Shown here one piece after another: positions 5,451 to 62,569 of a stretch of DNA of 64,000 nt. Position numbers and translations under genes: made by a program. The first letter of the stretch is position 1; every line of letters begins with the position of its first letter. The DNA comes from Psammoneis japonica (taxonomy: Eukaryota). The notes under the pieces are model-generated. The model was given only the letters and a program-made list of their open reading frames with translations, was not told where the DNA came from and did not search any database. Where the stretch lies: NCBI GenBank assembly GCA_008632985.1, contig QPGO01000020.1:620001-684000 (forward strand), given 5' to 3'.

Positions 5451-5660
5451 ATGGCGTCGTCAGCGACTGTCCTGTCGAAACGCGTCAGTCTTCCCAAGTC
5501 GGGTAGAGATGCAGTTGTTCTGTCTTTAAATCGTCCCGATCGTCTGAACTGTTTCAACACACAAGTTTGCGAATTGTTGTCGAGACATGTTTCCGAGCAG
5601 TTGGTGTTGGATGCAGAAAATGTGGCTGCAGTGATTTTGACGGGAGAAGGGAGATCGTTT
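5451..5660 (+). pseudogene. Enoyl-CoA hydratase/crotonase N-terminal fragment
   Basis: AVVLSLNRPDRLNCFNTQVC...VAAVILTGEGRSF is the crotonase N-terminal signature; homology is lost immediately afterwards. Confidence 0.7.
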
Positions 5661-17000: not shown

Positions 17001-17714
17001 CTTGCATTCTTCAACAAATTGAGGCAAGAGAAACATGCGCACATCATCTCCCATTGTGTGGCAAACATGTCCCACACAATGCCAACTCTTCAAGCTGTTC
17101 TTCCTCAAGAGCTCTGTTGAGCTTCCTGGCATTCCTCAAAACAAAGCCCATTGTTGCCTGTTTGACCATCATGCTCCAAGATTCTTCCCATCCTTTTTGT
17201 GCTTTTTGGAAAATCATGGCAGCTCTTACATTCCTCAAGCCATTGAACAAGGAGTTGGTGATGAATCATTTCCCACTCAGAGCCAAAATGACAAACACAC
17301 CCAAAGCTGTTGTTCTTTGATTCATGACATTGCTGCTCTTCATTTCAAGTGGTGTTGAATCTGGGAGCTTGGATGACTCAAGCACCTGGGAAGGGGGTTC
17401 TGTCTCTTGCAAAGGTCTTTCAAAACTGGCACTCTTGCCAGTCACAAACAAGGCATCCTTGTGCAACTTGGGGCCAATTTGACCATTGCATCAAAGGTTC
17501 ACCATGCAAGAGAATCATGGCCACCCTCATCATCTTGCATGCACACCCAAGATGATGTTTGCTGCTGGGAGCCTTCCAGCCAATGCACCCAATCATTTGG
17601 CTTGCATCAGTGGCAGAACTTTGAACAGGATCTGCCATTGCTCCAATCTCTGCTGTGCCATGTTCACACTGGTTGCCAAAACTCTGCAGCTCTGGCATCA
17701 ACAAATTTGCTTGC

Positions 17715-23100: not shown

Positions 23101-25301
23101 CCATTCTTTGTGCTGTGCATTCCATTGTTGTTTGCTTCCAGAAACAAGCCTCCCATCATTTGCCATGGTGGTGGTCAGGAGAACAATGGATGTGGTTGCA
23201 TCATGTGCAGGCGTGTCTTCCAACATCATGCTGTGTTTGCACTGTTTGGCCTCTTCGAGATGTTTTGTTGTTCAACAAATGAGACACAATTGACACACTC
23301 TTTTTTGACCACACAGATGAGACATAAAATGTGAGCACTTCATTGCCTCTTAGAGAACATTTTCATGCCCCACTTGCATTTCCGCGGAAGCATGACACAT
23401 GGACATTGATTGTGACACAGACCAAAGGAGCCGGTTTCCAGGTTGTTTTGCAAAAACTGGCAAACTGCGCCCACACCCTGCTTGTGCCACAAGGGCAGGA
23501 GTGGTGTTTTGGCCCATTGCTTGTGAAAAACTGTTTGACAGTGACAAGCTTTTTGCAAGTCTCTGCTGTCACACAGAGGTGACTTGTGAAGGTGGGCGGT
23601 GTTTTGGTTGACAAAAAATTGGATTTGTCTTGTTGATGCTGCACTCTTGCTTGCTCTTCATGTGCCATGTGAGTGGCAAAGCATTGGACAGATTGGATGG
23701 AGCAATCTTTGTTGCCATTGGCACTGAAACACATGGCAGCTGTGTTCCTCATGCTTTGTGCAGATGGGATGCATGGTGCATTGGGCACAGCATGAGCAGG
23801 CTCAGGAAAACTCTCATGTTTCTGGTGCCAGTTCTTGAAAAGCCATTTTGCTGGAGATGTGCCACTCTGCTTGACGGGGCCAGTGCTCATGTTTTCAGTG
23901 CAACTTGCAAGCTTGCAGCTTGCATCTTTCAAGCATTGAACAAAAAGATGGGAAAAAACCATGCTTTGCAGGGTGGACTGGCAGTGGGCGGCAAAAAGGA
24001 GCATCACATGTTGAGCAACAGGACGTTGGATCCAACATGCTGATGGCTGCACAATGATGGCTGTTGCAGCACTTTGACAACTCCCACTTGCAAACACAAC
24101 TGCAAGACCACCACGCAGGATGCTGCCATCTTGATGGGAGGCGCCATCATTTTGGAACATTGCTGGCCCCACTTCTGCTGTCCAGAGTGTGCCAAAGCTG
24201 CCTGAAGTGATTGTGAGCAAGAGAAGCTCATCCATGAAGAGACTTGCCAAGCTCTCTTGGTGGCACGGTGGCCATCATTGAGATGGGCAGCACCTCTGAG
24301 GTGGAAGTCAAGGAAAAGAACAAGAGCAATGTTGACACAGATGCATTGAATGTCACCCATGCAACTTCATCCTGGCTTTGGTGGAATGCTGTGTGGATGA
24401 TGCACATTTGTTGTGAATTCGACTGGGAAAGTCACTCCTTTGGAGACTGGCATTGTTGTCCTTTTTCTGGAAAACAACATTTGGAAACTGCCACATCAGT
24501 GCACTGCAATGGCAGATTGGAAAGGCAGCTCAGTCCCAGAAAGCTTTGTTTTCAATCTCTTGCACACCCCCCACTCCATTCTGGGCGCGTGATTGATGGG
24601 CAGTCTTTCAGCCTCTGTGACTCCTGTTTCTCACTGGAACGAAGAAGAAGAGGCAGCAAGCATGAGAACAAAACTGTTGCTGCCAAATGTGCAAGTGGCA
24701 TCAACACAACAACAGCCCTGCATTTTGGATTTGCAAACACGCTCCCCTTTTGGATGTCAGTCTGAGTTGATTTGTCAATTGATTGATTTTGGATTTGCAG
24801 GTGTGGATCGCTGATGCGCCACAAGATTGCTTCTGTGCTTCAATGTGCAGAGGCACTGGTGATCTCCATTCAACCAGTTCTGAGGTGCTGCTGGCACTCC
24901 CTGGTTGGCTGCAGCTGGCTGTTCCCCAAGACATTTGGGGCATCTGTCGCACATTTGGTTTGTCGTGTGTGGCAAGAAACTCGGGTTGTGAGCTTTTTCT
25001 CTTCCCACCTGGAGGTCAAGCTGTGGCCCACAAGCCTGCGCTCATCATCCTGATCTTGCTTCCCCACAGATCTGTGTGGCACTTCAATCTCCATCCATTG
25101 CAGATGACTCATGATTCCTTGGACTGATGCCAGACAGAGGCAGCCCAAACATGAACTCACAGTTCTGCCGCGCCGTCGTGGGGTCAAGAAAACACACACA
25201 ACACAAACCACGTCATTCATTCTTGTCTCCAAAACAACCCTGACAATCCTCTGTTTCAATGAATTGTGATCAGAGTGAGCAATGTTCCGATCAGCCATCA
25301 T

Positions 25302-25351
25302 GCTCAGCGACCACACTCAGCGACCACACTCAGCGACCACGCGCTCAGCGA
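25302..25351 (+). repeat. 13-bp minisatellite (CTCAGCGACCACA) x~4
   Basis: Directly visible tandem copies. Confidence 0.8.
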
Positions 25352-25698
25352 CATGCCAGGAATTTGTGGGTGTTCCACACGAGTTCTGAACCACCACGAC
25401 TTGTTTCACGATTGTTGGGAACAGGGTTTGTGAGTGCCATGAAGGTGTTGGCTAAAAGATTTGACGGAGGATGTGTGTTGAAAACGGCATCCACGTTCAT
25501 CACACACACAGTGTGGTGCCGTCGTCAACAGCAGCGTCGAGTCGTCGTCGTCCAACAGATGATTGATGCGCTTCCGCGCGCGGTCTCGATCATCAGGTCG
25601 GATAGCGGAGGGAAGTTTCGCAAGTTGAAGTTCGCATGCATGCCGGTATCTTTGATCTTTGGCGCGTTTGGAAATACAGTACGAAATGGGTACTGTAG

Positions 25699-41603: not shown

Positions 41604-41864
41604 GGCCTGTTCCAGCTCCAGGTGCTCCGCGAGGGTTCGATTCCCATCATTTGGAAATTTGTGCATTTGGCGCAATTGACTTTTTTCCAAATCCATTTTT
41701 TGCCAAATCGAAGGGTGAGTGTACACTTTACATGCATTTTCGGGTGTACGCTCACCTTTTGATTTTCGAAACGATCAAAATTGAAGGAGTCAATTGCGCC
41801 AAACTGCGCAGAAAATCGGCCTCTCACGTGATGAAAAGCAGATCACCTGGAGCTGGAACAGGCA
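41604..41864. mobile_element. MITE family A, copy 2 (261 bp; TSD TGCT)
   Basis: Same TIRs and interior as 19278-19547; TGCT at 41600-41603 and 41865-41868. Confidence 0.9.
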
Positions 41865-44800
41865 TGCTGTTGCCCTGGCTGAAAGACTGCTCTTCGCTGC
41901 TTTTTTGTCATCTTGACAAATTGTCACCTGAAGTCAGCCCGTGTCTGTTGCACATGGCATGCCAGAGCCATGGAGTCCAGATGACATCATCTGCAGCTGC
42001 CTGCTGTTGACACCTTTTTTTAAACCAAAAGCTCAAAGAGACGCAAGCATCTGAGAATGCCCCCCTGGCACCAAGCCCTCAGCCAACAGCACGACATTTT
42101 GCAAGTCATGTTGAAATCCCCTGTGCACACAGCTGTGTGGCTGCCAAGCTTGGGGAGCACAGCTGCCGACAATGTGGACAAAATGCGCACACTTCTTCAT
42201 GCTGCACCTCTCAACAGGCCTGCCCTTTTCATCCCAGCTTGTTCAGATGATGCACACTGCAATCTTTGAAACTCATCTCATCTCATGAGTGTCTGAAAAA
42301 CAGCCTTTTGTTGCTTGACTGTGCTTTTTCACTCAGCATTGTTTGCAAAAGAGTTGGGTGAATTGGGCCTGGGTGTTTTTGCCAAAACCAAGTGTTCTTG
42401 ACCAGGTGGTGGTGGTCTGCAACTTGAATCTTAGCCTCAAATTTTCATTTTGTGTTTGGGCCTTCAATGTCAGCATCCTCAAATCCACAGCTCCGTCTGT
42501 CCTTGTCAAACCTGCAGTGTTTTTTTGCTTGTGACTGCAACCCTCGCCAGCACCTGTGCACCACCCATCCTTGTCATGCTGCCAAAGGCTGCGTGGGTGG
42601 TCAAATGAAAAGAGACAGTGCAACAGGTGAGAGATGAAAAAAGCAAAATGTGTTTGCTTGCCTGTCTCAGTGAGCCCAGTCCATTTTTGCCATGAAAGAA
42701 TGTTGCCCCTGCTCCCAGCACTTGCTCAAGCACAAAATCAGATTGCACAGCAAAGTCAGAGACCCAAAAATCAATGGATTGTGACCCTGTTGTGGTGGTG
42801 CAAGACAGTGCCAGCAGCACAGGAGATTGGTGCGGAAGTGGCCAAGAGTGTGCGGCAGAGGTGAGAAAGTGGCCAGGCTGTGAGAACCATCTTCCAGAAA
42901 GCAAAGCAAGAGCTCTCAGCGGCAATGGGAGGAACAAGAGCAGAGTGCTGTGTTTGCAGATTTTCCTGTGTGGACAATGACCCAAATCTGAAAGCAATGT
43001 TTTCACACTTTTTTGACTGATGGAGGGATGGCTGGAAAGCTCTGCCATGGCACCATTGATTTGGAGAGAGCTGGTTTGGACAAGTGAAAACAAAGAGCAA
43101 AGTTTGTTCACACAAAACTCTTGGTGTGTGGCAAAACATTGGCAAACTGCACTGACCATGCTGACATTCTCCAGAACAACAAAATTTGGCAAACTGAGTG
43201 CTTCTGCCTTCCATCTTTTGCAGCACATGATTCACGCTGGCAGCTGACAGATGCCAGCAAATGCATTGTGAGTGATGCATGCATTGTGCACCCTCGTCAT
43301 TCTGGCACTTTTCTTTGGAGTTGAAAAATGTCAAAAATGCAAAGCAAAATGAAAAATCAGCAGCACAGTGTTTGTGACACCCACAGCTGGATGCAATGAA
43401 AACTGAATTTGGTGCTTTTTGTCATTGTGAGACAACTTCCTCCCCACCAGAGCAAGAGCAATTGCCACACAGCAAAAAGCTGCTCTTTCCAAACAGCAGC
43501 TTGTGGCCATGTTTTTGTGCCAGCCTGTGTGCCTCCCAAGAGTGCAAATGCTCTCAAACACTGTGGCACACAGGGAAGTGCAAGGTGGAGGCATGCAGGA
43601 GACAGCAAGAAAGAAGTCAGAGAAGGGGCTTGCAAGTGCAAAATCATCCTGATGCCAGACAACCTGCTTTGGAGGAGAGGGGTCAAAAGCTGCACACTTG
43701 CAAAAATGGTGGACTTAGAAATGGGTCAGATCATTTGGGGAAAGAAGGAGTTGTCTTGCAGGAAGGATTTGACAAAGCACTTGTGAAAAGATTGCTTGAG
43801 GAAACTCAAAGAGAGAGCACAGATGATGTCAAATGTTTGGAGGGAAAAGATGCTCTTGTGTGACACGTGAGCTTTGATTTGTTTTTCTCATGACATGTGC
43901 ATTTGAGCTCCTGGCCCCAAGTCTTGCTTGCAGTCTTGCAAACACACCACAGCCAGATTTGAAAAAGAGGAGCTTGCCAACCATGCACAACAAATGTGGG
44001 TTGTTGGGTCTGCAATGACAGCCCAAGGAAGTGCTCACTCTTTTTTAGCCAGCTGGCTGGCAGGGCTGCAAGTCACAAAGTCCAAATGTGCATGTTGCAC
44101 AAGCTGCTGTGCTGCTCAGCTTGCTGGGACAAGCCTGCATTGCAAGAAGGATTGTGCACTTTGCTGGCTGTTAAAGTCACAGCACCAAGTGAACAAAGAC
44201 CAAGCCCTGCAGGAGGACAAACTTGGAGTGAAGTCAGTGGCTTGTGGACAAAGCAGGCAGCTCACTTGCACACATGCATGAAGCAAGTGTGCAAAAACAC
44301 CAGCCCATGAGACCCAGCACACTCTGCAGCAGAGCAAGCAAGCTCAGAAACAGCCTTGCAGCTGCTTGTTGTTGGCAGCAACCCTCTCTTTGTAGCTGCC
44401 TTTGTGCTGCTTCTGTCGCACCACCTGGCACACAAGGCACAGAGCACAAAGCACAGCCACACTCTGATGCTTTTTGAGCAAGTCTGGCACAGAAGTTGGT
44501 GCTCAGTTGGTGTGTTGCCTGCTGTGCCAAGTGGAAATGTGCCCTGGACAGAAAACAGATGAAGTGTGTTTAACTGGACAACACACAAAAGAGCTCCAAG
44601 CAAAAAGAGCACCAACAAGCCACAGTGCATTTGGCCCTCATTGAAGAGGAGGAGCAAAAGAAATCAAACATGGGGGCCAGTGTGATGCAGATCCTGCAAG
44701 AGTGGTGGTCTGTGAAATTGGTGGTGGTGGCACATTGCATGAGCCAAAGATGGTGCTCTGATGGACATGCACAGCATGTGGCAGATCACGCCATCAGTGG

Positions 44801-45625
44801 TGAAATGACATCTTCCCTTTTTGTTGGGGAGTGCCCAGCACATGAAGTGTCGACACAACTGGCAGATGCCAGCCAGCAGCAGCAAATGTCCTGCAGCTGT
44901 GGTGCAGGCCTTGTGAAAGAGTGAAGGTGTGCACCATGGCACAAATTTGCTGCATGAGCCCAGCCCACACAGCTGCTCACAACTCTTGCACAGAGAAGCT
45001 CAAGCACACACTCATGCAACCAAGAATCATTTCACAGCAGAAAAGCACCCTGGCTGCCTTCTTCCTTTGCTGGGTGGAAACTTGTGGTGCTGGGTTGTGA
45101 CAGAGTTTGTTCTTTGTCACATGCTGCACAAAAGACACACCCATTTCTGCATGACACTGGATTTGGTTTGCACTGAAAAAGTTTTGGGTCATGAAAACTT
45201 TTGACATTTTTTGCATTTTTGAGTGTCTGTGCTGGAATGATGCAACCTCGTCCATTTCCAAAATTTCAAGTGGCAAGAAGAGGCACAACGGTGCTGCAAA
45301 AAGGCGGTTGCTTCTTTTTTACATTGAGGGCAAATGTGCACTGCCCAATGATTTTGCTGCAAAGCCCGCCACACACACAGAATTCTGTGGGCCCAATGTC
45401 GCAGGGCACCCCAGCCACATTTTGCTGAAATGCATGTTGGCAGCAGGCAGAGGTGTGTGCCAACTTAGAAGCAGCTTTGCAGCTGTTGTCAACCTGCTTT
45501 TGTTCATCTCCAACAAACTTGGCACATGAAGCATGATCCTTTGTCACAGAGGTTGAGAGCTCGGTGCCTGCGCCAGAAGCAGCACACAAAAACAACTCTC
45601 TTGCAGACAAAGAGGCAGCAGAGAG

Positions 45626-45629
<4 letters not shown>

Positions 45630-45666
<37 letters not shown>

Positions 45667-45672
45667 AGAGAG
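45630..45672 (+). repeat. (GA)n microsatellite
   Basis: Directly visible. Confidence 0.95.
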
Positions 45673-46376
45673 CTCTTGCTGTGCTGCCAATGGCAGGGGA
45701 GGAGGGAGACCATGGCAAAAACTGTTGGCTCTTTCCTTGTGTGTCAAGGCCAGGGCAGCTGCTGGGCACAAAAGAAAGCTGCTGGCAACTGAAGCTAACA
45801 CAAAAATGCCAGCAGCTCACTGGCTGCAACTCCATGAACTCAACTTCAAAAAAATGCACACTGAACATTGCATTGCCCGCCCTGTGTGCGTGGTGGTTTA
45901 GTCCATGTTGTTTGAGAGAGTCGTCCGTCGTCACACATCTCCACACCTCTTGCTCTGTGCGGGCGGCCGGAGGTGTTGCACAGAAAATGCTCCAGCATAT
46001 ATGAAATTTAAATTTTAATGAAAGTATTAAAGCTTGAATATCGTCAATATTTTGATATCAAATATCTCGTGTTCATGAATTTAAAGTTAACATTAATTTT
46101 TGGAATGATGGATCCGCATCGTCCATCGTTGTGGCGTTTGTCACAAAGACAGAAAATATACCGGTACACTATGTATAGTAAGCTTGCTCATGCTGATGCC
46201 GCCCGTGAAAGAGTGAATATACTGCGGCTTTGTTTTCCTTTTACCGGTACACCTTCTTGGCATTTTCTCCTCATCATTATCTAGAACCCAACGCCACACC
46301 GAATCATCACACCGGTGCAAGCATGTCAGAGTTTCATCATAGATGGTATTTATGTTCTAGAGTATAATCATTCAAA

Positions 46377-48079: not shown

Positions 48080-48781
48080 TTAGTGGAGCGAGAACGTCAT
48101 GATGACGGCCCAACCAACAGCAGCAAACCAAACATTCCTAGAATGAGTGCTTCCGGCACTGTCTTCAGGCAACATGAGCTCATCACACGTCGTGGCTCCT
48201 GCTGCGCCCACCTTGGTCACGTTCATCAAGGGAGGAGTGCTGTTGTCGCCATCGACCATTTTCCCAACCACCACGGCACGCAAACCCTTGTCCGTATCAC
48301 CGACGCACCCGGCGCAGCCCGAACCAACCTCGAGACCGAGATTGATGATCATAGTATTTCCAGCCTGATCCAATTTGGCAACACGAGTGTAGTTCCCACC
48401 TTCTGTCTCGGGGTCGCCAAGAACTTCGTAACCGGACGCACGGCAATAGGGTGGATTCAGCATGCCTACAGTATGACGTGTGTTTAGGGCGGTGCCACAA
48501 AACAACGCATGAGAATTCGTTAGAAAAGAATGAAAATAATGAAAAGGGTAGTCTCCTCCATTGCACTTACAAATAAAGCTGTGCGTTTCCGGATTCTTGA
48601 GAGGAACGGCTTCTGCATCATCTTCGAAAAAGCCTTGTTCGATGCAGTAGGTATCAAGAACGTAGCCTTCAAAGCAGACTTCGCCTCCGTCAAGCTGACG
48701 AGCATGAACAGTAGGCACCACGACAGAACTGCCAACAATGGCAAGATTAGCAACAACGAAGAGAGAGCGAAAGAGCATCAT
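48080..48781 (-). CDS. Secreted, possibly GPI-anchored Cys-containing protein; in-frame 105-bp intron at 48570-48466
   Basis: Signal peptide; VCFEGYVLDTYCI..NPETHS..C..SGYEVL..LDQAGN; hydrophobic C-terminal tail; GTAAGT..TAG intron. Confidence 0.7.
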   Translation of the reverse strand: MMLFRSLFVVANLAIVGSSVVVPTVHARQLDGGEVCFEGYVLDTYCIEQGFFEDDAEAVPLKNPETHSFICKCNGGDYPFHYFHSFLTNSHALFCGTALNTRHTVGMLNPPYCRASGYEVLGDPETEGGNYTRVAKLDQAGNTMIINLGLEVGSGCAGCVGDTDKGLRAVVVGKMVDGDNSTPPLMNVTKVGAAGATTCDELMLPEDSAGSTHSRNVWFAAVGWAVIMTFSLH

Positions 48782-49453
48782 GGTGGTAAGGATATGGTGT
48801 GCAGATGGTGTGTTGAAGGCATGCGTCAGTGTGTGTTGCGGCAACCGCCTTGTGTATCTCGCAGCGTCAGTTCTGCGGTATCCTGTTGTCCATCATCAAG
48901 AGGCGTTTCATTGCAGGGCTGTGGGTAATCGACGCTACGAATAAGCCAGAGAACAACCGTGTCAACATCACCGTTGTATGTCCATTGTCCATAAAGTGCG
49001 AAAAAATGCTCAAGCACTTTTCTTTGCCGTTTTCGCTTTTGCCTGTCGTGTGCACATGGCTGGATGGACGTACAGTAGAGTGTTCTTACCGACCCGTAGG
49101 GGACCCTTTTTTCCGGGTCTCTTTTTGTATGACGTCATCGTGCGAATATAATAGCGCCACCTGACGTCACCGCACCTGTAAGTCGCCATGAGAACCCGTA
49201 GAAAACGCCATGTCTTACAGCTACAGGGGGGAAACATAACCTGCTGTATCTGTAAGCGGAATGATTTCCGCTCGTACAAATTCTACGTGATTTCCCCGTG
49301 CACCGTCGCTTGCGGGTCGAATCAGAACTCCGAAGAAATGATGTGTGAGAAGCAAATCCCGTGACACCTCTCTCGCGACAAAAAACACACATCAACGCAT
49401 TCTCACGATGCTCTAGTCATAACAAGTCATAGCATCCATGCAACACATCTGTC

Positions 49454-50512
49454 ATGCCTGGTGGACAGCCACAGAGTCACAAGTTGTCATGGGCATTGAA
49501 AGAGTTGAAAAAGAAGGAGAGATCTGGTGGCTCCGGTGGCGCTGACGGGGAAAAAAATGCGAGCGGTGCTGGTGGCATTTCTGCGCTCGATGTTGACAGG
49601 CCAGCCCCGCATTTGACCATGGATGGAAAAGAATCAACTCTTGTGGAAATGACAAATCTCCCAATCGATCTTACGGAGGATGAAAAAGTTGACATCATCA
49701 ACAAGGAGAAGGGAGTCACGAAAAAGCCGAAGCTTCCAAACTTGCTGGCTCCTGAGAACGAGGCCTTGTTGCGTGATCTGCTGCAAATCACACAAGCAGC
49801 AAAGGCAAATTGGCATGTCAAGCACATGTCCAAAAATGCAACCACATCTTCAATCTGGCAGCCAATCATGGACGAGTTCTGTGACCCACCTGACGGCCCT
49901 GCACGTGGCTGCGCCAAGCCAGATGGTGAGCATGCGGCGCGCACCTTCAAAGAAAAGTGCTGGAGTGTCATGAAATCATTGGCGAATTTTGCCAAACAGA
50001 AGAAGGAAGAGGATTGCTCCCCGTGTGAGGTGTCTGCATTGTTCATGTGGAACGAGCAGCAGGAACTGGTCAACAAAGACAAAGAGACCAAGTCGGAAGC
50101 AATGGCCTTGCAGAAGGAGAGGGCAGCTGCAAATGCTTCATGTGAAGCAAAACTAAAGCTTGAGCCCCCACCTCCATTCACAAAGAAGCGCCCAGTCCCA
50201 AGTGCAGCTGTCAATCCATCTGAGAGGCCTGATGGAAAAGTGCCGGGGGAGCCGAGGTCAAAGGACCGTGTGCTGGATTTGGAAAAAACTCAAGACAAGG
50301 CAGACGAAGTCTTGAGTGGCATTAAAGCTTTTTTGCCATCCAAGGAAGAGATTGGAGAACTCAACAAGCGCAAGAAGAGGAAGCTTCAGCTTGATGCAAT
50401 GGCGTCTGTGGCAACAATGATCACGCAGGGCAGGGATGCGGGTCTCGACGTTTCAAGGTTTGAAAAGCATTTCAAGCACCTGCAAGACGAGTTCTTCGAA
50501 GACCAAGCTTGA
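49454..50512 (+). CDS. Harbinger accessory ORF (putative Myb/SANT-like DNA-binding partner), Tyr-free, probably inactivated
   Basis: 352-aa ORF inside the TIRs, convergent with the transposase; 0 Tyr. Myb/SANT identity is inferred from position only. Confidence 0.6.
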   Translation: MPGGQPQSHKLSWALKELKKKERSGGSGGADGEKNASGAGGISALDVDRPAPHLTMDGKESTLVEMTNLPIDLTEDEKVDIINKEKGVTKKPKLPNLLAPENEALLRDLLQITQAAKANWHVKHMSKNATTSSIWQPIMDEFCDPPDGPARGCAKPDGEHAARTFKEKCWSVMKSLANFAKQKKEEDCSPCEVSALFMWNEQQELVNKDKETKSEAMALQKERAAANASCEAKLKLEPPPPFTKKRPVPSAAVNPSERPDGKVPGEPRSKDRVLDLEKTQDKADEVLSGIKAFLPSKEEIGELNKRKKRKLQLDAMASVATMITQGRDAGLDVSRFEKHFKHLQDEFFEDQA

Positions 50513-50741
50513 AAGAGATGAGGCTTTGCTTGGCACAAATTAGGACACATGTTGCATGTCGCCACAACAACTTCAGAGCCACACAGAAAAAAATCTGTGG
50601 CCTCTCACAGTGCATGCTGAGCATGACGACCCCGCAAAGTTGCGCGCCAAATTCCCAGTGCGTTAAAATGAGCTGGGCGTTGCTCCAGAAGCAATGGGAA
50701 TTTTGCAACAACAAACAGTGTCAACGTCATCTAAAGAACGA

Positions 50742-51712
50742 GAGCTTTCTAAATGGTGTCTTTTTTATTTCCATGCCCCTGTCAGATCCGAATCGGCGTC
50801 GAGATGTCCAGACGACCCCGCAGTTGCGCGCCAAAATCCTGGTGCGTTTTGCTTGAACAGGCGTTGCTTTAGAAGTGCTTAAATTGTGGGACAATCAATG
50901 GCAGCAACATTGTCACAGAGTGAGAGCTTTGTGTCTTTTTTATTTCTACACCCCCATCAGATCCGAATCGGCGTCGAGATGTCCAGACGACCCTGCAGTT
51001 TCGCGCCAAAATCCTGGCACGTTTTTTTTTTTGCTTGAACACGCATTGCTTTAAAAGCACCCAGAATTGTGGGACAATCAACGGCAGTGACATCATTTGC
51101 AGAACAAGAGCTTTCTAATGGTGTCTTTTTTATTTCCACGCCCCTGTCATATCCAAATCGGCGTTGAGATGTCCAGACAACCCCGCAGTTGCGCGCCAAA
51201 ATCCTGGTGCATTTTGCTCAAATGGGCGTGGCTTTAAAAGCACTTGGAATTGTGGGACAATCAATGGCAGCAACATTGTCTGCAGAACAAGAGCTTTCTA
51301 ATGGTGTCTTTTTTATTTCTGTGCCCCTGTCAGATCCGAATCAGCGTTGAGATGTCCAGACGACCCCGCAGTTGCGCGCCAAAATCCTGGTGCGTTTTGC
51401 TTAAACAGGCACTGCTTTAGAAGTGCTTGGAATTATGGGACAATCAATGGCAGCAACATCTTCTACAGAACGAGAGCTTTCTAATGGTGTCTTTTTTATT
51501 TCTGTGCCCCTGTCAGATCCGAATCAGCATTGAGACATCCAGACGACCCCGCAGTTGCTGCCAAAATCCTGGTGCGTTTTGCTGAAATGGGCGTAGCTTT
51601 AGAAGCACTTGGAATTGTGGGACAATCAATGGCAGTGACATTTTCTACAGAACAAGAGCTTTCTAATGGTGTCTTTTTTATTTCCACACCCCAATCAGAT
51701 CCGAATCGGCGT
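50742..51712 (+). repeat. ~183-bp tandem array, ~5.3 copies, between the two Harbinger ORFs
   Basis: gagctttctaatggtgtcttttttatttc..cagatccgaatcggcgtcgagatgtccagacgaccccgcagttgcgcgccaaaatcctgg recurs at ~50742, 50925, 51108, 51291, 51474 and 51656. Confidence 0.95.
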
Positions 51713-51806
51713 CGTTCAGGAAATAGAAGCGCTGAGAGTTTCGCAACAATGTGTGACACAAAGACAAAAGAAGCTACATTCATGCTGAGTTTGCAACAAC
51801 ACAGAT

Positions 51807-54363
51807 CTAATGTAAATTTAAGCAGTTTTGAATTGATGGTGGATCGACACCAAATGTGCCGATCGCACCAATCTGGTTGTGGTTGAAGCACGTGTAACAA
51901 TTTGTGAGCAAGAAAGACACGCGAAGCTGCTCACAAGCATGCGGTGTTTCACAGCATGGCTTGAAAGGACAAAACGTCCTGCAAATTCGAAAGACATTGG
52001 ATGCAACACCATGGCTCCACTCTACCGTGATGCGCACTGCCTTGAGCTGATAATTTTCGAGCACCTGAATGGGCGTGAGTGGAGCTAGCCCGTTGTGGCC
52101 GGGGCGATGCGCATGAATGACGCATTGTTGTTGAGCAAATCCCCGGTCCGCATGCACAGCATGCACCATGCCATTTGGAAAGCAGCCTTGCTGAATGTCC
52201 AGCAAGTGTTGGTTCACGGCTGACAAGTGCTGCAAATCGGTGTCAGCTCTGGCAAACTCGAACAACACAAAGAGCAATGAGAGTGTGATGAGCAGCCACA
52301 TTTTACAGGAAATGCAAAGCACATCGGACTTGTTCCAGACTTAGGTGGCGCGCACATGCCCCTTTTCGCAGAAAAAATAATTTTTTAAAGCTTTATTTAA
52401 CACCGTACATATTTAATAAAATTGAATATATTAATGGCTTTTAAGTAAAATAAACAGAATAAACTCGAACAAACAAACAGCCAAACCGGCCATGGCTTTC
52501 AGTGACCATGACGGCCCACTTTTTTCAGCCTTATGGAAAATTGAATGTCATGACCAGGATCTCCGTATTTGATATAGTCTGTGTCATCAACAACAATAGT
52601 GAAAATGCTTGTTGAAGGCTGCAGCGCGGCACAATAATGCTAAATCTGTCAGCAACAACAATTGAGCCTCTATTCACTCACAATTTGCCTCTAAGGACCA
52701 TTTCTTTTCTATTACCATGTATATTTCCTCAATATATTCGACTGATTCAAGTGTATCAATCGTTTATGCCTTCTAAACCGTGAAAAATGGTCCGAAGTCG
52801 ACGCCATTGCGTGGGCTGAGCTACACTTCTTCTCACGTCGTCCTAAACTTATTAATCAACGGATGCTTTATTCGATCCGTTGAATGTAACTCGTATTCGC
52901 GTATATAAACAAAATATTAATTATGCTATGTTAAAGACTTAATTTATATATATTAATAATATTTTATATGTTTCTTCTTACATTAAGGCGTATATAAATC
53001 GCTCATCGGAAAATTCGAGCTCTCAACTTACGGTACAATTTAGCGACTAATGACTGAGTCCATCAACAGTTTCGAATACATGGGTACACGCACAAGACAA
53101 TTCTGTATGTACCCATAAAAACACATTTGTAAATTGTTATGTTTTTACTCTATCGAAAATGGTGCCGCAAGTGTGGACCGCGCGTTTCATGCAAAAAGGG
53201 TCATTTTTTTGCGCGTGAGTGCACCCAAGTCTGGAACAAGTCATCGGCAATGCACAACTGTGTGCTTGCCTGCGAGCTGAAGTGGGACCCCATGTGATGC
53301 TCAAGCCGTTTGGAAAAGTTGTTGCAAGCATCTTCATGCCGTGAATGTGCTTGCACCCCGTGCACACCGATCGCTGAATGTTGTCTGCGTCAGGGCGACG
53401 CGGTGCATCTGCCCAGTCCTCAACTGGCCCTGTCCCTGGAGCATTTGTTTCAAACATTGAACAATCCACAAAGCCAAAAATGTTGAATTCCCCTGGTGGA
53501 CAAACAAGACCGGGGACGTTGTGCACTTGAGCAGTGTCCGGGTCAGTCCAAGTAGCCCGTTGCTTCAGTTTTCGCTCCATTGCTCTTGCAAACAAGGGAA
53601 AGTCATCAATCCACCTTTCAAGACCTTGTTGCCCAAGTGTGGGAGCACATCTGTCATCAAGATGCATCAAAAACCACCGGCATCCATGCGACCACCGAGT
53701 CAAATCCCTGCCTCCAAAGCACTCATCCACCAACACGGCATTGTCGAGTCCAAGTGCCACCTTGGTCAAGGAAAACAAAAACAATTCCTCACCGGTGAAT
53801 TGGCAATGATGCCCATGAGCACATGGCACAAGAACCAAATCGGGCAGGTCAAACAAAACACACAATTGTCGCAACTGATCCACATTGAATCGTGTCATCC
53901 GCTCGGCGCAGTTGTCAGAGCATTCATCAATTCGTCGGTTATGAGGCAAGACAAAATCAGCAGCACGATGCTCTTCCTCGCATGTCATGTCGCCAATTGC
54001 TGCGTTGCAATCTGCCCAAATGTGAGCCACATGATGACATGCAAAAATGCCACCCAATGTGTGCGCAAGAGCAACGCCAAACGGATCGTCCACATTGCCA
54101 ACTTGTTCTGGATCCAACAAATGACCATTGTCCTGGTTGAAAACATCAATTCTGGACACAATTGAAAGCAGAGTGAGAGTTGCAGACCATTGAATAAGTG
54201 ATTGAACAGAACGCGTCCAGAACACCTCTGTTCTCCTTGGCGCTGACACTCCTCGAGCGTTGAGAGACCTGTCCCTCATGTTTCTGTTGGTGAGCCGCCG
54301 TGGCAATTTGCGGCGGTGTCCATGGTGAAACAGACGTGGTTGTCTTGGCATGATGTGCATCAA
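51807..54363 (-). pseudogene. Harbinger DDE transposase (DDE_Tnp_4-like); exons 54363-53270 and 52248-51807
   Basis: IFGFVDCS, QRSVCTGCKHIHGMK, FPNG, GPTSARR|AD, HADRGF, ENYQLKAVRITVEWSHG, LLTNCYTC. The exons join in frame; the donor reads GCAAGC. Confidence 0.9.
52327..53242. mobile_element. MITE family B (916 bp; TIR GACTTGTTCCAGACTT[A/G]GGTG; TSD ATCG), inserted in the transposase intron
   Basis: 21-bp TIRs with one mismatch; ATCG at 52323-52326 and 53243-53246; AT-rich interior. Confidence 0.9.
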
Positions 54364-54915
54364 GAGTGCAACAACAATGCGACTGCAAAAGTGTTTCTTT
54401 ACCTTGGTGGATGAGAACCCGCAACCCCATCGTCAAAGCATCAAAGCCGCACCCGCACAGGTTGAGCTGATCGGCTGCAGCACCGGGCAGGCGAATTGTG
54501 ATTGAGTCGAGTGGTGAAACACGAATGGATCAGAACCCGAGACCCATGACCCATGCGGGTCGGTAAGAACACTCTAGCACCGGGCGGGTGGTGCGGACGA
54601 AAATGAGGTTCGTCCATCTGTCCATTGAAGCTTGAAGATGTTCGAGCAATCGGTCATCGCGGTCGGTGCCTGGTGCTCGCGGTGCTTCAGTGCTCGGTGC
54701 GGTGCGGCATCATTGGACGCAGTGACGATGGTGCCCACGACTTGCAAAAGCAATGCTGATCCGAGACATTGCATGATTTTTTCTTGTGGATCTTGACCAA
54801 AATGTTGCAATGGCCATGGTTGTTGCACCCCAAAAGAAGCGTTTGGTGAGGCCTCAAAAAGACGCTTCATGCACGAACAGGTGACAGGTGGCTCTCCATT
54901 TTTTTAGCTCTCGGC

Positions 54916-56030
54916 ATGGCAAGTTGCGTTCTGCTGCATTTGTTGGTTCTCGGAGGATCTGTTTTTCTTTTTCGCAATGTCCTTTGGGATCATGAAAGCC
55001 TTCGTGGTGCCTTCAGACATCGCAAACACCACATCTCATGCCCCTGCGTTCAGCGTCACTTGGTGGAAATTTCCAGCTCCACCCATCTCGATTGGAAAAG
55101 CATCTCCACCATGTCAAGAATGAAAGCAAAGATGACGTGATTTTGAGTGAGAATCTGTTGCAAGTCAAAATGCCCTGTTTAGATCATGCCCGGCGCTTTC
55201 TCTTTTTTCGGATGCCTTGGATGCGCTCAAGCTGCAGCGAGGAAAGGATTTGTGTTTGCACACGCGCCAAATGTGGGTTTGCCGCTCAGCATCATGATTG
55301 GTGCCCGGGGCACATCAAAAGGCTGGCATTGTCAACAAGAACATGGATGCCAGAGATGACTTTGTCCATCCCATGTTGAAACAACATTTGGAGGAGGAAG
55401 ATGTCAATTCATCCAGAGCGTGCAAGAAACAACAGACAGCACAATGGCGGTGCATTGCACGGCATGTGTCAATCGATCTGGGCTCATGGGGTGGTGCAAT
55501 GTGTGATTCATGAAGAACAAGTTGTCTTGAGAAAATCCATCTGTTGTCAACAGTGCTGAGGAAATGTGATTTTGAGATCAAACCACAACTTTCAGTGGCA
55601 GCTGGCAGCACTGGCGGGCACGACATGAAGGGTTGCTCGGGCCAGCTCCAGGAGAGCTGCAGTGCATTGCAACAGAGCCACTGAAAAGCCATTCTTCCAA
55701 TGGGCAAAAAGAGACACATGTGGTGGATGCCCCCCTGTTTGCAGTTGCACAGAGTGTTGCACCCGTGTCGTCTGCAGCCTCTTGGCAGCCAAGGCTTCAA
55801 GTGCTGCTCCCATGTGGATTCGTCCACCAGGTCTGAGGTGCAAGTTGTTGCGGCACTGCCAATTGCTTTGGGATTTTCAACTCTGTGTTTCAAAGCCGTG
55901 TCATGTCAAATTGATGAATGATCATGGGTTTTTCTTCATTTGGGTTTTCCTGTCCAAAGCTCTGCCTCCTGCTGCAATCATCCACCTGAAGCTGCAGGAC
56001 CGTGCGTCAGCAATGAGAGACTGAGCCAGG
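54916..56030 (+). pseudogene. Hypermutated remnant of a probable host type II membrane gene (possibly sulfotransferase-like)
   Basis: MASCVLLHLLVLGGSVFLFRNVLW N-terminal TM-like segment and ICVCTRAKCG (resembles a PSB-type KCG motif); lies outside any TIR pair; no TA seen. Confidence 0.3.
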
Positions 56031-56380
56031 GCATTTGAAAGCGACATCAGTTGCATCAGAAACTCGCTTTGCCGAGGAACATTCTGTGTGAGGCAAAAGA
56101 GGGTGCGAGACATTGAGCAACATGCATGCATGTTCTTCTGGAGCAGCACTCGAGCTTCAGGTTTGGGCGGGGGCAGTGAATTGGAACTGCCACGACAAAA
56201 AGGTGTCTGGTTGTGGGGTGCATGATCTTTTTTCTGCTCGTGAGTCATTCAGAAATGCTTGAGGTTGCTCGCATCCCACATCAGGATGAGGACACTCTGG
56301 AGAGGAAAAGTGTTTGCAACGAGTGTGGTGTCTTTGTGAATGCTTTCAGATGCTTGCACTGGGGCCGGAGTCTCTTCTTG

Positions 56381-56935
56381 GACGTGTTCCAGCCGCACGT
56401 GAACCAAATCGTGCACAAAAACGACATTTGCGCGATTTTTGCGCGGTCCCTAACTTACGATCGAACTTTCACCACCAAAAGTATAGATTTATACAAATAT
56501 AAATGTTTTGCAACACTAACAAGACTCGTGTGAGTGTTGCAATATCATTGTTATTGTGCTATCTATGTTTTTCATTGCGTTAAAAGATTCGTAACACAAC
56601 GGATGATTTTCGGCGAAAATATTGCCGTTATTTGGCTGTTACCTAAATATATCTTTCTACGATGCTACTTGGTAGGTTTTCTACCTACAAAAAAATCTCA
56701 GTATAAATCTACTGACGTACAATCAGTATTGAGTCTACTGAGGAAGTTTATGATACATATCCCATGAGGATTTGAATACCCCTCAAAAAACTATTTAAAT
56801 GTTCATACTCTAGAAGCCTATAACAGTCAATCCGTCTAAGTATTTTTATTAAAATGCTATATACACTAAAATATACATAAATTATATTCAAAATCCGATT
56901 GTCGTTTTGTGCGTCACCTGGGACTGGAACACGTC
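56381..56935. mobile_element. MITE family C (555 bp; TIR GACGTGTTCCAG....A[C/G]GTGA; TSD CTTG)
   Basis: Inverted ends; CTTG at 56377-56380 and 56936-56939; AT-rich interior. Confidence 0.85.
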
Positions 56936-57190
56936 CTTGTTGGAATGGCATGGGGCGGGCAGGAAGAGCCCTTGTTTCTTCAGGGCCACACACTGATCTC
57001 CTTGATGATCTAGATTCTTCCAAGGCTGAGGCATCAGATCCACTCGTGATGAGCGGAGAATCCAGAACTCGATCGCCGAGTGCGATGAAACAGATGGCCC
57101 AGATCTTGTCGTTCAAACAGAGTCTGTCGTTAACGGTCGAGCGCATGCTGAGACAAATCATGGTCTGTGCAATGACGGCAACCTGTTCTT

Positions 57191-60100
57191 GTTCAGTCTT
57201 GGCACCAGAACCCCGGGACTGAATCCCTGGTTTTTGAAAATGTGGGTTTGAACCCCAAAATGAAAACATGGGATTGAAACCCGGGTTTTTGTTCACGCAG
57301 CTCGCAGCACTTTTTCTGCGTAATTTTGCCATTTCTTAGAACCCGATGTGACTTTGCTTCCCAGTTCTTGCAGAAAACAGATCACTTGATCCACTGCATG
57401 GCCACTGCTGCTTGCAATGTTGAACAAAGAATTTGACATTTTATGTGGCATTGCTGTCCTGCTGTTCAATGAGACTTTTGATGTGATTTGCATTCTGTCT
57501 CTTCACCGCAATTGATGGTGGTGTCCAGTCAGTCTTGCATTTGTTTGAAAACAGCTGAGTGTCTTCCCTGCCAAGCCCATGCAACAGTGCATCATGACAG
57601 TCAAGGAAACAGGTCTTCTTGCCGCTTGTGCCTCGGTTGGTGGGGAAGTGCAATGGTTTCCCACACAGGTTGCAACTCGAGTGCGAGTCTGCCCTGCACC
57701 AAACACAGACCCTTGGATGCTTGTGGCTGGCAGACACTGCATCGAACTGACAATGTAAGTGCGGCAAACCATGACATGGACAAGATTCATTTCCACCCTG
57801 CTGAGCGTGTTGGCATTGTTCCAATGTCACAAAATTGTGAGTCGTCGTCATTTGTTCCGAAGCCGCTCTTCGATGATGGTTTTGTTGCATTGCAACCCGC
57901 ATTGCGGAGTCACCATGGTGTAAACATGCTTCAGGGTGACACTGCAGCATCTGTCTTGAGAGTTGTTCTCAGAACTCCCAGCAACCCATTGGACTGTTGT
58001 CTTTCCAAGACAAGTCTGACCCACCCTCCGCCACTTCCAAATGCATGTCATGCGCAATGATGATGGCCATGGCCTTGCCATGGTTCATGGCAGAATGCCA
58101 ATGCTTCCAAGAGCAACAGAACATCTTTGCATTTTTGATGCAATGATCCATTGAATCAATTCGTGAGTGAGTTGAAAGATGCAGATCACGGGCTTCATTC
58201 ATCTTGATTGCCCAGTGTTGCTTGCTCTCGTTTCCACCTCTTTCCCGATGCTTCACATGTTTGTTGCACTGGTTGAGGGCATTCACAGCAGCAATGTTGC
58301 ACAACGAGGTTGATTGAAATGAGCAAAGCACATGTTGGTGTCCCTCAGTGCTGCGTGTGGGCACCACAGTCTTGACAGCAACAATCGGATGACCAAATCT
58401 TGCTGCTTTTGATCTTGCATCGGATGGTGTTTGTTTTTTCTGAAAGCACTTCCCTGGCACTCCCGAAGGCAGCCGATCCCTTTGACGTGTGAATGCAGCC
58501 GAATGGCCATTTTCTCCAATCCAGTCTGAGCTGTGGTCAGCATCAAAGCAGTTGTCACATGTTGTGTGTGGCTTTCCTTGGAACATCTTCTTGGGTCCGG
58601 CGTTGTCACCCATTCTGCCAAAATCCACCATTTCGCCTGCTTGTTCCAAGATCACACGGATTTCTGTCAGGCCCATGGCACCCCCCATCCATCTGTCCTT
58701 GGGTGCAATTTGTGTCGGTGAACACAAACCCAAGGTCAGATCCAGTGTGCATCCAACATGATCACTGTCTGACCACCCTTGGCAATGCCGGGCTTTCCAA
58801 CTGTGCGACCGGCAATCCCGCCACCAGCGTCACCACAACCCGCATGGCCCCAGGTGGTTTCGTCACCACATTGATCCAATTCTGCATGGTGTGTCATCGC
58901 GTTGACATTGTGAGCTGTTGTCGTGCATGTCATGTCATGCTTGTGGGCCGGGTTGCACCCAGCTTCTCCTCTTCTGGGGGATGTCATGTTGTTGCATGGC
59001 TTCAGCACTCGCTTCATTTGAAGCCAATGTGAATGATCAATTGACGAGGACATGTCTGAGTCGCAGTCGGATCCATCAGCCATCCACCTGCGGTGAATGG
59101 CTCCGTCACTGCCACCCTTGACACCGTCTCGGACAAATCTCTGTCAAATCTGACAAGCTCCTGGATGCTCACAAGTTTGAGCTGGTGTCCATGCGAAGAG
59201 CACAGCTTCAACTCTCCCGCGGTGCACAAGTTTGAACATGTTTCTGCTTCGCTGCAGAACGACTTTCTGGGGTCTGAGTTGACACCCGACCGTGTGGTGT
59301 CACACATTGGCAGAATCAATTGATGGAAAACAAAGCATCCCAATTTTTCATCTGCTCAGCTTTCATTCCCAATGATCGCAACACATCTGTGTCCAATGAT
59401 CCTTTCCCAATGCCTGGAAACAGGTTGTCTTTTGATGCACCCGATCCATTCGGCAGCGACAACATCTCAGATCTTTGTCATCATCAGCAACATCATCGTT
59501 GGACATGGACCGATCCCACCCCTGATGAAAGAACCACCATCCATGGGAAATTTGTTTCCCTTCCAAATTCTCAGGTGCCGGTGCGGCACCAGTTGGCAAG
59601 CTGTGATGAATGTGCTCCTTCTCCCCTCTTGCCTCAAACTCAGGGCGGAGCGCATGTGTCTGCTCCACCCTCCGGGATTGTCCACATCAGCAAATGGTGG
59701 CTCTCCCTTGTCTGCTTTTATTTCAGGCAGCTGCCACCCTTCAGGAGCACCTGGAACATTCAACTGCACCGACGGGTCATGCTCACCATGGTGCAGCAGC
59801 AAGGCAGCATGGTCATTGTCAGCCACAGTCTGTCCGTCACTGTCTTGGTCCACAACACGTGATCTCAACCGTTCCAAATGGGCTTCAGCACAAGCTCCAT
59901 CAATGTCATTGACATTCTCATGCTCTTCGTCGCTGTCACCACCATCTCCCGTCTCTGTCTCATCCTCAAGGACGTGCTCGGGGTTCACCAGTTGGTCCTC
60001 CACGGTTGCGGGACCAAAGTCTGTGGCCGTCATGCACAGTGGCAGCCCTGGTTGTTGTGCTGCCATTCCACCAAACGCTTCATTGGTGCTTTCAGAGGCG

Positions 60101-60484
60101 GCCATCTTCGTCACGACGTTGATACTCCGATTCACTGAGCGTGTTACTTTGACGACAATGGCGGTGGCTGCGGTTGTTGGTTTTTTTTTTGTAGTCATCG
60201 GCTTTTCAACGTAGACTCAGGTAACATTTCTACGGTGATGCGTCACTGCAAAAAACCCGGGATTCAGTCCCCGAACACCCCGGTTTCAAGCCCACTCTAA
60301 TAACGACAACAAAATGCCAATGTAACTCCAACCGTTAGACATGTTATTTGAAGGGTAAACAGTCATTAACATCCCGACTAAACCCCTCTGAGTAATAATC
60401 AATGGTTATTGGATCTTTCCGTTCAACGGCTAACGGCTAAACCCGGGACTGAATCCCGGGTTTTTCGGGGCGCCCAGACTAAAC
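57191..60484 (-). mobile_element. piggyBac-like DNA transposon (hypermutated)
   Basis: Imperfect TIR GTTCAGTCTTGGCACC vs GTTTAGTCTGGGCGCC; subterminal palindromic CCCGGGACTGAATCCCGGG motifs at both ends; encloses the transposase remnants. Confidence 0.8.
57441..60198 (-). pseudogene. piggyBac (PGBD)-like transposase with C-terminal Cys-rich domain, fragmented
   Basis: CGDETTW, TTCDNCF (=DNYF), IDSMDH, SWKHWH, and C-terminal CVWC..CNLC..LH..CFLDCH; broken by stops and frameshifts; the main fragments are Tyr-free. Confidence 0.8.
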
Positions 60485-60651
60485 GATACGTACTATTTTA
60501 CAAGAAGGGCGCTGCTAATCCTTTGTCTCTCCGATGGAGACAAGGTTTGGGCAAAGGTGATCGAATTCAGAGCTTTCCAGCTTCATAGCGAACGGAATGA
60601 CAAAATGCCTGTGTCTGGTGGTGACCTATCGAATTTGTAAAAGAGGATTTC

Positions 60652-61722
60652 TTGAAAAGTCGAGGAGATTTCATCCTGGAACATGAAGGTGCGTTCAACA
60701 AATTAGACCAAGGTATGTATGATCAGACAGTGAAAAGGACGGAACGCAAGCCCTTTCGATCCCATCACATCCGAGCCGACATGAGGAATTCTATCGAATA
60801 CCGCGCAATCACTTTGGCACAGCTTCGAGACTGGGCCAAGATACGCCAGAAGAAAAAGTGCGAGGTAAAGATGGCGGAAAAGGGGCAATTTTATGGGAAG
60901 ACATCAGTTGTTACCATAATACACTCTACCTTGTGGTGAGACCATCGACAGCAGCAACTGGTCGTAGCTACGTGGAGAAAATTTCTAGCACACCTCAGAA
61001 AGGGCATTACCACTTCAGCTTTCCATGGGATATGAAGTTCGACGAGTTTCGAATGGCTAGCTGAAGCAAGAAGAATACCAGACACGACCCCACTTTATGT
61101 ATACCCCTTGATGTCTACCCAAGAAGACAATTATTTTTACAAGGATTTGTGGGCGGGTCTAATGGAAGCTTGCGATTACAGTGTCTTTTCTGCAAGCATG
61201 TATGTGGCACCTCTACTTGATGTCGCCCATCGACCTGCACGGGTGTCCTCTCCTTGGTTCGACCCTTTCAGGAGGGAAGCTAAGAGTTTGGCCATTTCGC
61301 CACAGATTTCGCGACATCCCTCGTGAATATAAACTCTGAAAAAGACGATTACTATCATGCGAGTTTCGCAATCGACTTAAAGTATGTACTCTGAAGCTGT
61401 TAATGCGCTCGAGACGACGATAAGCACAGCCTGGGTGGGACCAATTCTCCGAAACGCCGCTTTTCTAAATGACTGGGAGAAGCTCGATAAGATATTCAGT
61501 GAGTATCCGTGGTTGATTGACCGTGGCTTACATTTGCAGGGTCCCCTGGGAGAGACTCCTCTTCACCTCGCCACAAGTGCCGGGAGTGCTGAGACTTTGA
61601 AGATATTTCTGTCAAAAAGCGCGAATCCAAATGCACTATGGGTCTTATGCGCAACATCTGCATTGGCCATGGGTGTGAATCTACCAGCACCCTCGTCAAT
61701 ATCCTGGGCAACACAGACTTGA
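60652..61722 (+). pseudogene. Ankyrin-repeat protein remnant
   Basis: GETPLHLATSAGSAETLKIFLSKSANPNA; upstream fragments (RAITLAQL, VVRPST..SYVE) lie in other frames. Confidence 0.6.
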
Positions 61723-62569
61723 CGAGGCAGAGAGACGCAGGCTACCAACGTCGGTTTCTACTGGCTGCAAAAGATGATGAGGGCAATTCTTTCGAAGAAA
61801 TGGGAAGCAGTTTGAATTTTGACTTTTTCTGAGACAAGAAGCAAACAAGTCGAATATGATTCGAACATGCTTCGCGCTATCTTTGCTACCAGAGTTGCTG
61901 CCTCTCGTCACCTTTCGGACCGGTGTACTTCTTTCCCAGGTTACGTACTCCATGGTGATGATTATACTATTGTTCAGAGCGAGTCCCGATGATGTTGTGA
62001 TCAACAGCGAGATCTCATTATCCCTAACACGATTCAACTTCGATGCACAAGTCGGGAAGAACATGCGTGGTACGACCAGCATTTGCGCTCTTCACGAACA
62101 CACCGACCAACTGCATCGAAGACAATAGTTCGGTTGCACCATCGCTTCGTGGAGTGAAGCCAGTCCATCGCAACATACGCCTTAAAGCAGCTGAAAAATG
62201 ATAACAGAAGGATGATTAAATTAGAAGTGAGTTTAGCGGCAACGATATCCTGGCTTGCACACTTTGCAGGGCTCACCCTTTTGCTCAGTGGAATTGTTTG
62301 CAAATTATTGTTTCGCCGCTGTTTCCTTCATCCTCTAGTTGTCTCGCATGGTGTAGATTCCCGGAGAGTTCTTGCTGGCGCTCTACCTGCAGAATCTGGA
62401 GTGTTGCCGACGTGAACGTGTTGCGGTGGCAACGGGGAGTGCGCCTTGAGCCAAGCTCTTGGACTTGGCTTTCCGTGAGATTCTGGAGAAGCAGCGCTTT
62501 GAAACTGAGGTCAACTTGAATCTCATAGCCGGTATCGTGGGGAAAGTTGACAAGGAAACCATGCCCTAA

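Follow-up and report, generated by a model that had tools for sequence, protein, structure and literature searches.

The closest described counterpart of the changes reported here comes from the rhizarian alga Bigelowiella natans, in which hypermutation restricted to TpA was found in integrated viral DNA and measured directly in mutation-accumulation lines at two viral inserts, its rate in some of the lines exceeding background about 1000-fold (Mettrop et al., bioRxiv 10.64898/2026.01.13.699255). That preprint proposes, and does not show, an adenosine deaminase (ADAT2/3-like) as the cause, and extends the process to transposons by composition only, TpA-depleted clusters being rich in transposon domains. 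A related phenomenon is RIP leakage in ascomycetes, wherein dinucleotide-specific hypermutation of transposons overruns into adjacent DNA (PMC3105345). For diatoms, work on DNMT5 describes isolated silenced TE islands with CG methylation, some of which spreads to nearby sequence (PMC9998398). The literature searched by title and start of abstract, with most subscription journals outside its scope, yielded no diatom report of TpA loss, and an A-to-G, TpA-specific genome defence was found there in one preprint on one rhizarian alga.

The locus that we describe from the diatom Psammoneis japonica resembles B. natans in the conversion of TpA to TpG or CpA on both strands, regionally, and against the usual GC-to-AT bias. 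The A-to-G and T-to-C changes are confined to TpA (34/47 parental sites, with copies of a MITE and of a Harbinger-like element likewise differing mainly at TA), and the affected DNA directly adjoins normal DNA (TA observed/expected ratio, o/e, of 0.02 versus 0.49-0.67). It differs in that what is hit here is not viral inserts but DNA transposons and a patchwork derived from host genes, and in that a process measured in the rhizarian is in the diatom inferred from the comparison of copies, in which it has run to near-completion. A parallel loss of CpG, a preference for TAY and a spread beyond a transposon end on one side only belong to the diatom locus only, as far as the portion of the B. natans account drawn on here goes. 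RIP, in the part of its description used here (PMC3105345), is a C-to-T process that creates TpA, whereas A-to-G changes remove TpA in the diatom; moreover, it is triggered by duplication, whereas high-copy MITEs and a sister copy of the affected DNA are largely spared here and position decides. RIP was accordingly rejected both on chemistry, with TpA falling to o/e 0.03 and CpA rising to 1.73, and on trigger, as the parental loci (contigs C39 and C119) have normal TA content, 19/36 TA survive in the C18 sister copy and four of six other MITE copies are intact; purifying selection could account for the TA-normal parents only. In spilling over into adjoining DNA, on the other hand, the diatom process behaves like RIP leakage. 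The DNMT5 islands fit the CpG loss at our locus, but what the consulted part of that work describes is methylation and histone marks and not TpA loss (PMC9998398).

The window, i.e. the whole stretch of 64,000 nucleotides that was analysed, corresponds to positions 620001-684000 of contig C21 in the searched genome (91.4 Mb, 597 contigs). TA-poor, TG/CA-rich DNA occupies approximately 15.0-25.4, 41.7-45.9 and 49.4-60.1 kb of it, and the features in and around the last of these are listed in Table 1.

Table 1. Features of the locus, in window coordinates
Feature	Position	Strand	Remarks
Predicted ORF, intact, single-copy	48080..48782	-	left of the Harbinger-like element; TA o/e 0.49; only the window itself matched in the genome
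Left flank	48783..49075		TA-normal, o/e 0.56
Harbinger-like DNA transposon, young	49076..54576		TIRs; four copies 0.4-0.65% apart outside TA/CG sites
Mosaic part A	54591..54845	+	beginning of a dispersed repeat; further copies on C18 and C49 (two)
Mosaic part B	54847..55060	+	internal piece of an Ion_trans/PKD-channel-type gene; TA-normal parent on C119
Mosaic part C	55060..56347	+	broken copy of a dual-specificity phosphatase (to ~55700) and downstream DNA; parent on C39
MITE, high-copy	56381..56935		4-bp target duplication CTTG; 55 TA kept
TA-poor DNA	56940..57188		no second copy found
piggyBac-like DNA transposon	57189..60486	-	transposase reads towards the spacer; right 364 bp keeps TA

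The spacer between the two transposons, both of them multicopy, lies outside either TIR pair, as the original prediction had stated from this stretch, and its description there as almost free of TA apart from the MITE is borne out: outside the MITE it holds 4 TA where an o/e of 0.6 would give about 75 (Poisson P ~4e-27), namely two at 54577-56380 (o/e 0.02) and two at 56936-57188 (o/e 0.14), while the 55 TA of the MITE correspond to an o/e of 0.95. Control stretches within the window range from 0.57 to 0.66, and the left flank, the ORF at 48.1-48.8 kb and the flank to the right of the second element from 0.49 to 0.67; thus, the left flank and this ORF are indeed not TA-erased. In the spared right flank, no stop-to-stop frame that begins within the first 2 kb exceeds 131 aa, which implies that an evident intact gene is not needed for sparing.

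A genome search with the spacer recovered four other loci at 72-78% identity. The parent of part C on C39 has an intact 240-aa frame encoding a dual-specificity phosphatase (DSPc, E 5e-18), with named relatives from the diatoms Seminavis robusta, Bacillariaceae, Trieres and Attheya, and the window copy differs from it by 11 indels, nine of them frameshifting. The TA-normal parent of part B on C119 neighbours a frame matching Ion_trans and PKD_channel. Both parents look intact and keep TA; an intact paralogue or allele was what the original prediction had suggested looking for. For the part A repeat, all four matches, which include C18 and both C49 copies, begin within 14 bp, and a 7-bp hairpin stands at this boundary in two of four copies (the window and one on C49). 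The order A-B-C is found in the window and on C18, B-C on C13 and a C piece on C139, the channel-phosphatase fusion being common to C13 and C18; the longer B-C junction on C13 suggests that a deletion gave rise to the window form. Judged from these copies, the spacer is a low-copy dispersed mosaic with pieces of three sources and not native host DNA.

Transposons that capture genes end in TIRs with a target-site duplication, or in the TC...hairpin-CTRR arrangement. The mosaic resembles Helitrons, Pack-MULEs and CACTA elements, as these are described in the sources used, in that fragments of unrelated genes have been put together and occur as several scattered copies with a boundary in common. 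It departs from them in showing this one boundary with its short hairpin: our searches of the mosaic found neither a second terminus nor a pair of TIRs nor a target duplication, and among its copies only the left boundary is common to four, with no shared right boundary. The original prediction had opposed its host-gene reading to a spacer that is itself part of a multicopy transposon; what was found comes largely down on the latter side, in that the spacer belongs to a dispersed mosaic, albeit one of low copy number and whose transposon nature is not established. Other particulars of that prediction fell away when the relatives were aligned. In place of a GTAC-rich run typical of intergenic DNA, the C18 sister, which keeps three TA just downstream, reads GTGC and has no GTAC at three aligned places, and both C49 relatives are without the stretch; a change from GTAC to GTGC is seen once, at 54591, outside the run so called. 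What was taken at 54916 for the N-terminal TM segment of a gene remnant corresponds to a hydrophobic stretch from within the channel gene on C119, and this parent lacks the ATG. Likewise, no host gene can be said to have been destroyed by the process, as intact-looking parents persist on C39 and C119 and the copy is broken by indels and much older than both transposons.

The edges of the spacer are less clear-cut. Comparison of the left flank with DNA upstream of the C18, C39, C13 and C139 copies gave scores not clearly above those of shuffles (57-67 versus 45.5-71), and a 15-nt word at 49026-49040 also occurs just upstream of the C18 sister mosaic. At the other edge, 56940-57188 has no second DNA copy in the genome, and a protein search with it returned one weak match (E 0.035); this piece may be native host DNA.

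Comparison with the parents reveals the spectrum of the changes. Among the 47 parental TA sites, 18 read TG and 16 read CA in the spacer, and one is kept (0/38 relative to C39, 1/9 relative to C119); CG is hit less, with 24/46 parental sites reading TG or CA. Of six MITE copies fetched from elsewhere, two are set apart from the one in the window mostly by TA having become TG or CA. In the four near-identical Harbinger copies, 43 columns hold both TG and CA, which demands independent mutations after copying. Sites followed by a pyrimidine are hit about twice as often as the rest (TAC 74/161 and TAT 70/152, i.e. 46%, versus TAA 30/186 and TAG 34/149, i.e. 16-23%), and in the second element His or Cys stands at 25 of 32 aligned tyrosines of a relative. 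There is no consistent strand bias, either in the spacer counts above or at ambiguous sites in the window piggyBac-like copy (45:45), and AA is not depleted in the large erased stretches (o/e 1.2-1.3). As read from these alignments, TpA-specific transitions have struck both strands after insertion, in a position-dependent manner and beyond the TIRs. Native composition or codon bias was dismissed as the cause of the TA deficit given the TA-normal parents, CpG decay alone given that the parental TA sites themselves have changed, and an assembly artefact given that short-read contigs match the erased spacer.

The dependence on position is seen from the C18 sister mosaic, which retains 19/36 parental TA against 1/47 in the window (P 5e-8); of the eight C18 TA that align with the window, the latter keeps one. 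No TA-free block lies within several kb of this sister. Similarly, the left end of the Harbinger-like element keeps 19, 19 and 20 of 20 TA in three copies and 4/20 in the copy on C36, the only one of these four with an erased (TA-free) left flank, and a repeat that is TA-normal at window positions 5765-6781 keeps 6/43 TA beside a Harbinger on C140. The original prediction that the process mutates DNA outside the TIRs therefore stands as regards position-dependent TA to TG/CA change, and not as regards native host DNA. As an observation apart, the frame at 5382-5819, which resembles an enoyl-CoA hydratase (ECH_2, E 8e-4, below cut-off), is broken by the repeat at 5765-6781.

We next consider the element to the right of the spacer. 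piggyBac elements carry a DDE_Tnp_1_7 transposase with a C-terminal Cys-rich domain. The second element encodes a member of an 850-980-aa family on the minus strand, and its assignment as piggyBac-like is weak, with one of six scanned relatives passing the PF13843 cut-off (22.9 versus 22.4); its own ORF gave no direct Pfam match, atlas and PDB searches with it were blank, and its terminal dinucleotide is TA, not TTAA. Around its copies, the flank on the 3' side of the transposase is TA-free for at least 1.7 kb in all six full-length copies, nested TA-rich MITEs aside: for 1.7 kb on C1, 2.6 kb in the window and to the end of the fetched DNA, 3.2-3.7 kb, in the other four. The promoter-side flank is TA-poor at two of eight loci (C111 and C40) and normal at six (Fisher P 0.01 for 6/6 versus 2/8), with C365 and C464 counted once and a derivative on C68, a remnant on C76 and the copy on C132 (not fetched) outside the count. 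The 485-bp derivative on C68 has the reverse flank pattern and the short remnant on C76 is TA-poor on both sides. The terminal TA is kept in 0/6 copies on the 3' side and in 4/5 readable copies on the promoter side, the window copy having lost it on the spacer side and kept it on the far side. Two neighbouring transposons, as originally proposed, are thus not needed: around the piggyBac-like element, erasure falls on one side. The polarity is derived from six full-length copies found by similarity to the window copy, and the apparent rule that erasure lies beyond the transposase 3' end would, on these six copies, be what is new here. Some of the TA-free flanks may be other transposons; no family reached the Pfam cut-off among 76 long frames from the erased flanks and the spacer, 69 of them from the flanks.

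PIF/Harbinger elements combine a DDE_Tnp_4 transposase with a second ORF, TIRs and a 3-bp target-site duplication. The element on the left has ORF1 at 49433-50512 on the plus strand and a transposase at 53137-54432 on the minus strand, for which the atlas lead is PF13359 DDE_Tnp_4 (cosine 0.92), and it carries a 183-bp tandem array as well as a nested MITE at 52327-53242. In the window copy, 19/20 TA are kept in the left 355 bp and 6/41 in the right 1.3 kb, which is more than in the spacer. The array (50600-52300), located between the convergent genes, keeps 21-58 of 65 TA, while the distal part of the transposase gene keeps 1-3 of 24, showing that erasure is uneven inside one element. The transposase frame is open in four copies and the ORF1 frame in three, with 0-3 Tyr per frame; frames that are open yet nearly free of tyrosine result from TA loss removing Tyr codons along with two of the three stops. 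Flank polarity is not comparable to that of the piggyBac-like element, the right flank being erased in 6/8 and the left in 4/8. The 2.1 kb beside the C41 copy has no second copy in the genome, and a search with the flank of the C187 copy gave matches filled by a MITE. With regard to target choice, the 3-bp duplication is absent and one duplicated base is present in 6/6 readable copies: the base outside the terminal TA (49075 and 54577) is identical on both sides in the window and on C41, C187, C36, C64 and C8 (chance ~2e-4), so that the target duplication looks like 1 bp instead of 3 bp.

Summed short-read contig depth suggests hundreds of copies of the spacer MITE. Two of the six other fetched copies have lost most of their TA to TG/CA, whereas four keep 51-54. 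All six are flanked on both sides by TA-poor DNA, with 0-4 TA per 500 bp, and the MITE may target erased islands.

Outside TA/CG sites, the mosaic diverges from its parents by ~15% (67/449; 21/144) and from C18 by 8-17%; the piggyBac-like copies differ among themselves by 2.4-8.6% and the Harbinger copies by ~0.5%. The higher divergence of the mosaic, together with its indels, indicates that it was old and broken before either transposon came. Likewise, 24/46 CG sites have become TG/CA in the spacer and 97/184 in the piggyBac-like copy against 28/228 in the Harbinger copy (P 1e-8), the transposon counts being lower bounds, as they include only sites still CG in some copy. From these relative ages, the Harbinger-like element would be a later arrival than the piggyBac-like one.

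For an allele test, two public runs of one sample, which may be the source of the assembly and hence not independent, were compared with 51800-62500 at 85% likeness, using contigs, which drop rare variants. One contig covers 54606-56407 at single-copy depth with four other letters, and another bridges the MITE, the last 250 bp of the spacer and the piggyBac-like end. Neither a TA-intact allele nor an empty site is among the matches listed for this interval in this sample. The six differing letters listed for 54577-55540 all fall at CG/TG/CA steps; similarly, the C365 and C464 copies, with flanks 99.8% identical, differ at 17 columns inside the element, nearly all of them such steps. This hints that the process is recent, at least for CG.

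Taken together, these observations lead us to propose the following course of events, which as a whole we favour with moderate confidence. An old mosaic of a repeat terminus, a channel-gene fragment and a phosphatase locus was dispersed and decayed by indels, after which a piggyBac-like transposon inserted at its right with the transposase facing it, two steps that the copies themselves document. A regional TpA to TpG/CpA hypermutation, with slower loss of CpG, would then have formed on the piggyBac-like element and, leaving it at the 3' end, have extended ~2.6 kb over the mosaic. The mutation and its dependence on position are directly observed, and its source and direction, drawn from the six copies, make regional spread from the piggyBac-like side reasonably probable. 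The Harbinger-like element would have inserted later at the left edge, where it would now be erased in turn, and the MITE would have come late or so far escaped. As for mechanism, silenced, CG-methylated chromatin on the element might extend past its 3' end, probably via read-through transcripts, and recruit an activity that deaminates adenine in DNA specifically at TpA (A to I to G), along the lines suggested for B. natans; we put such deaminase chemistry at slightly better than even by analogy. Deamination of 5mC within that island would account for the loss of CpG. As neither strand is consistently favoured, a chromatin domain is more plausible than the editing of one displaced strand during read-through.

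The process might instead have begun with the mosaic. If this was itself recognised as mobile or foreign and erased first, the transposons and the MITE would have landed in or beside an already silenced island. Related pieces are in fact TA-free elsewhere: the C13 piece keeps 0/21 TA and the C139 piece 0/9, while a further erased channel-gene copy at C21:281k (0/25 kept) and a further phosphatase piece at C39:249k each lie in a TA-free block. The loss of 6/7 TA in a 220-bp core of the C18 sister shows that the mosaic can be hit alone, and the setting of all six MITE copies shows that at least one element family lands in such islands. However, landing in an island predicts that both flanks be erased, and the promoter-side flank of the piggyBac-like element is normal at six of eight loci; the C18 sister still keeps more than half of its TA, the C13 and C139 copies adjoin other repeats too, and the TA-rich majority of MITE copies argues that high copy number alone is no trigger. 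On this evidence we regard prior erasure of the mosaic as rather unlikely, though it is the main competitor of spread from the piggyBac-like element. The chemistry admits a different reading within the same regional process, namely that repair of deaminated 5mC leads to long-patch resynthesis by an error-prone polymerase, with no deaminase. Pol eta type polymerases are known from somatic hypermutation to produce A-to-G changes at WA. The joint loss of TA and CG in the same stretches and on both strands would suit this, as would the CG-methylated islands that diatom TEs form (PMC9998398). Nevertheless, AA, at the o/e given above, shows no depletion, the four Harbinger copies have only 33 other variable columns, and TA is lost in them far faster than CG, all of which makes the polymerase route improbable.

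The model of the original prediction, a native working host gene caught between two transposons and destroyed by a spread from both that halts at active genes, drew on the TA-free spacer outside both TIR pairs and the spared gene to its left, and the last 250 bp without a second copy may indeed be native. For this locus it is already contradicted, and we consider it highly improbable: the spacer joins three sources, with a fusion common to C13 and C18; the phosphatase copy has frameshifting indels, of a kind that TA changes do not produce, and ~15% divergence outside TA/CG sites; and the Harbinger copy is young, with its right end less erased than the spacer. This is real collateral mutation, but of a dead mosaic, and host-gene destruction is not shown here. 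The seemingly destroyed host gene is a mosaic that was older and already dead, so that the locus does not exemplify the loss of genes through collateral mutation. It also cautions that in diatoms DNA without TA need not be transposon DNA; host-gene duplicates seem common in TA-free islands.

More broadly, returning to spread from the piggyBac-like element, it is conceivable, if somewhat doubtful, that diatoms possess an active, transcript-guided DNA-editing defence that erases TpA, runs 1.7 to more than 3.7 kb from the transposase 3' end and has the promoter end as its border. If so, it would depend on the way an insertion faces which of the adjoining sequences is rewritten, with Tyr turning into His or Cys and TAA/TAG stops removed. 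Having a further lineage in which transposon copies can be dated, borders are sharp and orientation follows a rule also renders targeting directly testable.

Some further observations concern the rest of the window. At 15000-25400 and 41700-45900, the loss of CG is nearly as full as that of TA (CG o/e 0.14-0.17), and these blocks are probably of greater age; within the first of them, tandem repeats (17714-20127) match C139:57.2-59.5 kb. Finally, 60500-62500 is single-copy and TA-normal with short frames only, one of them ankyrin-like by eye, and might on such inspection be a spared gene that is broken or intron-rich.
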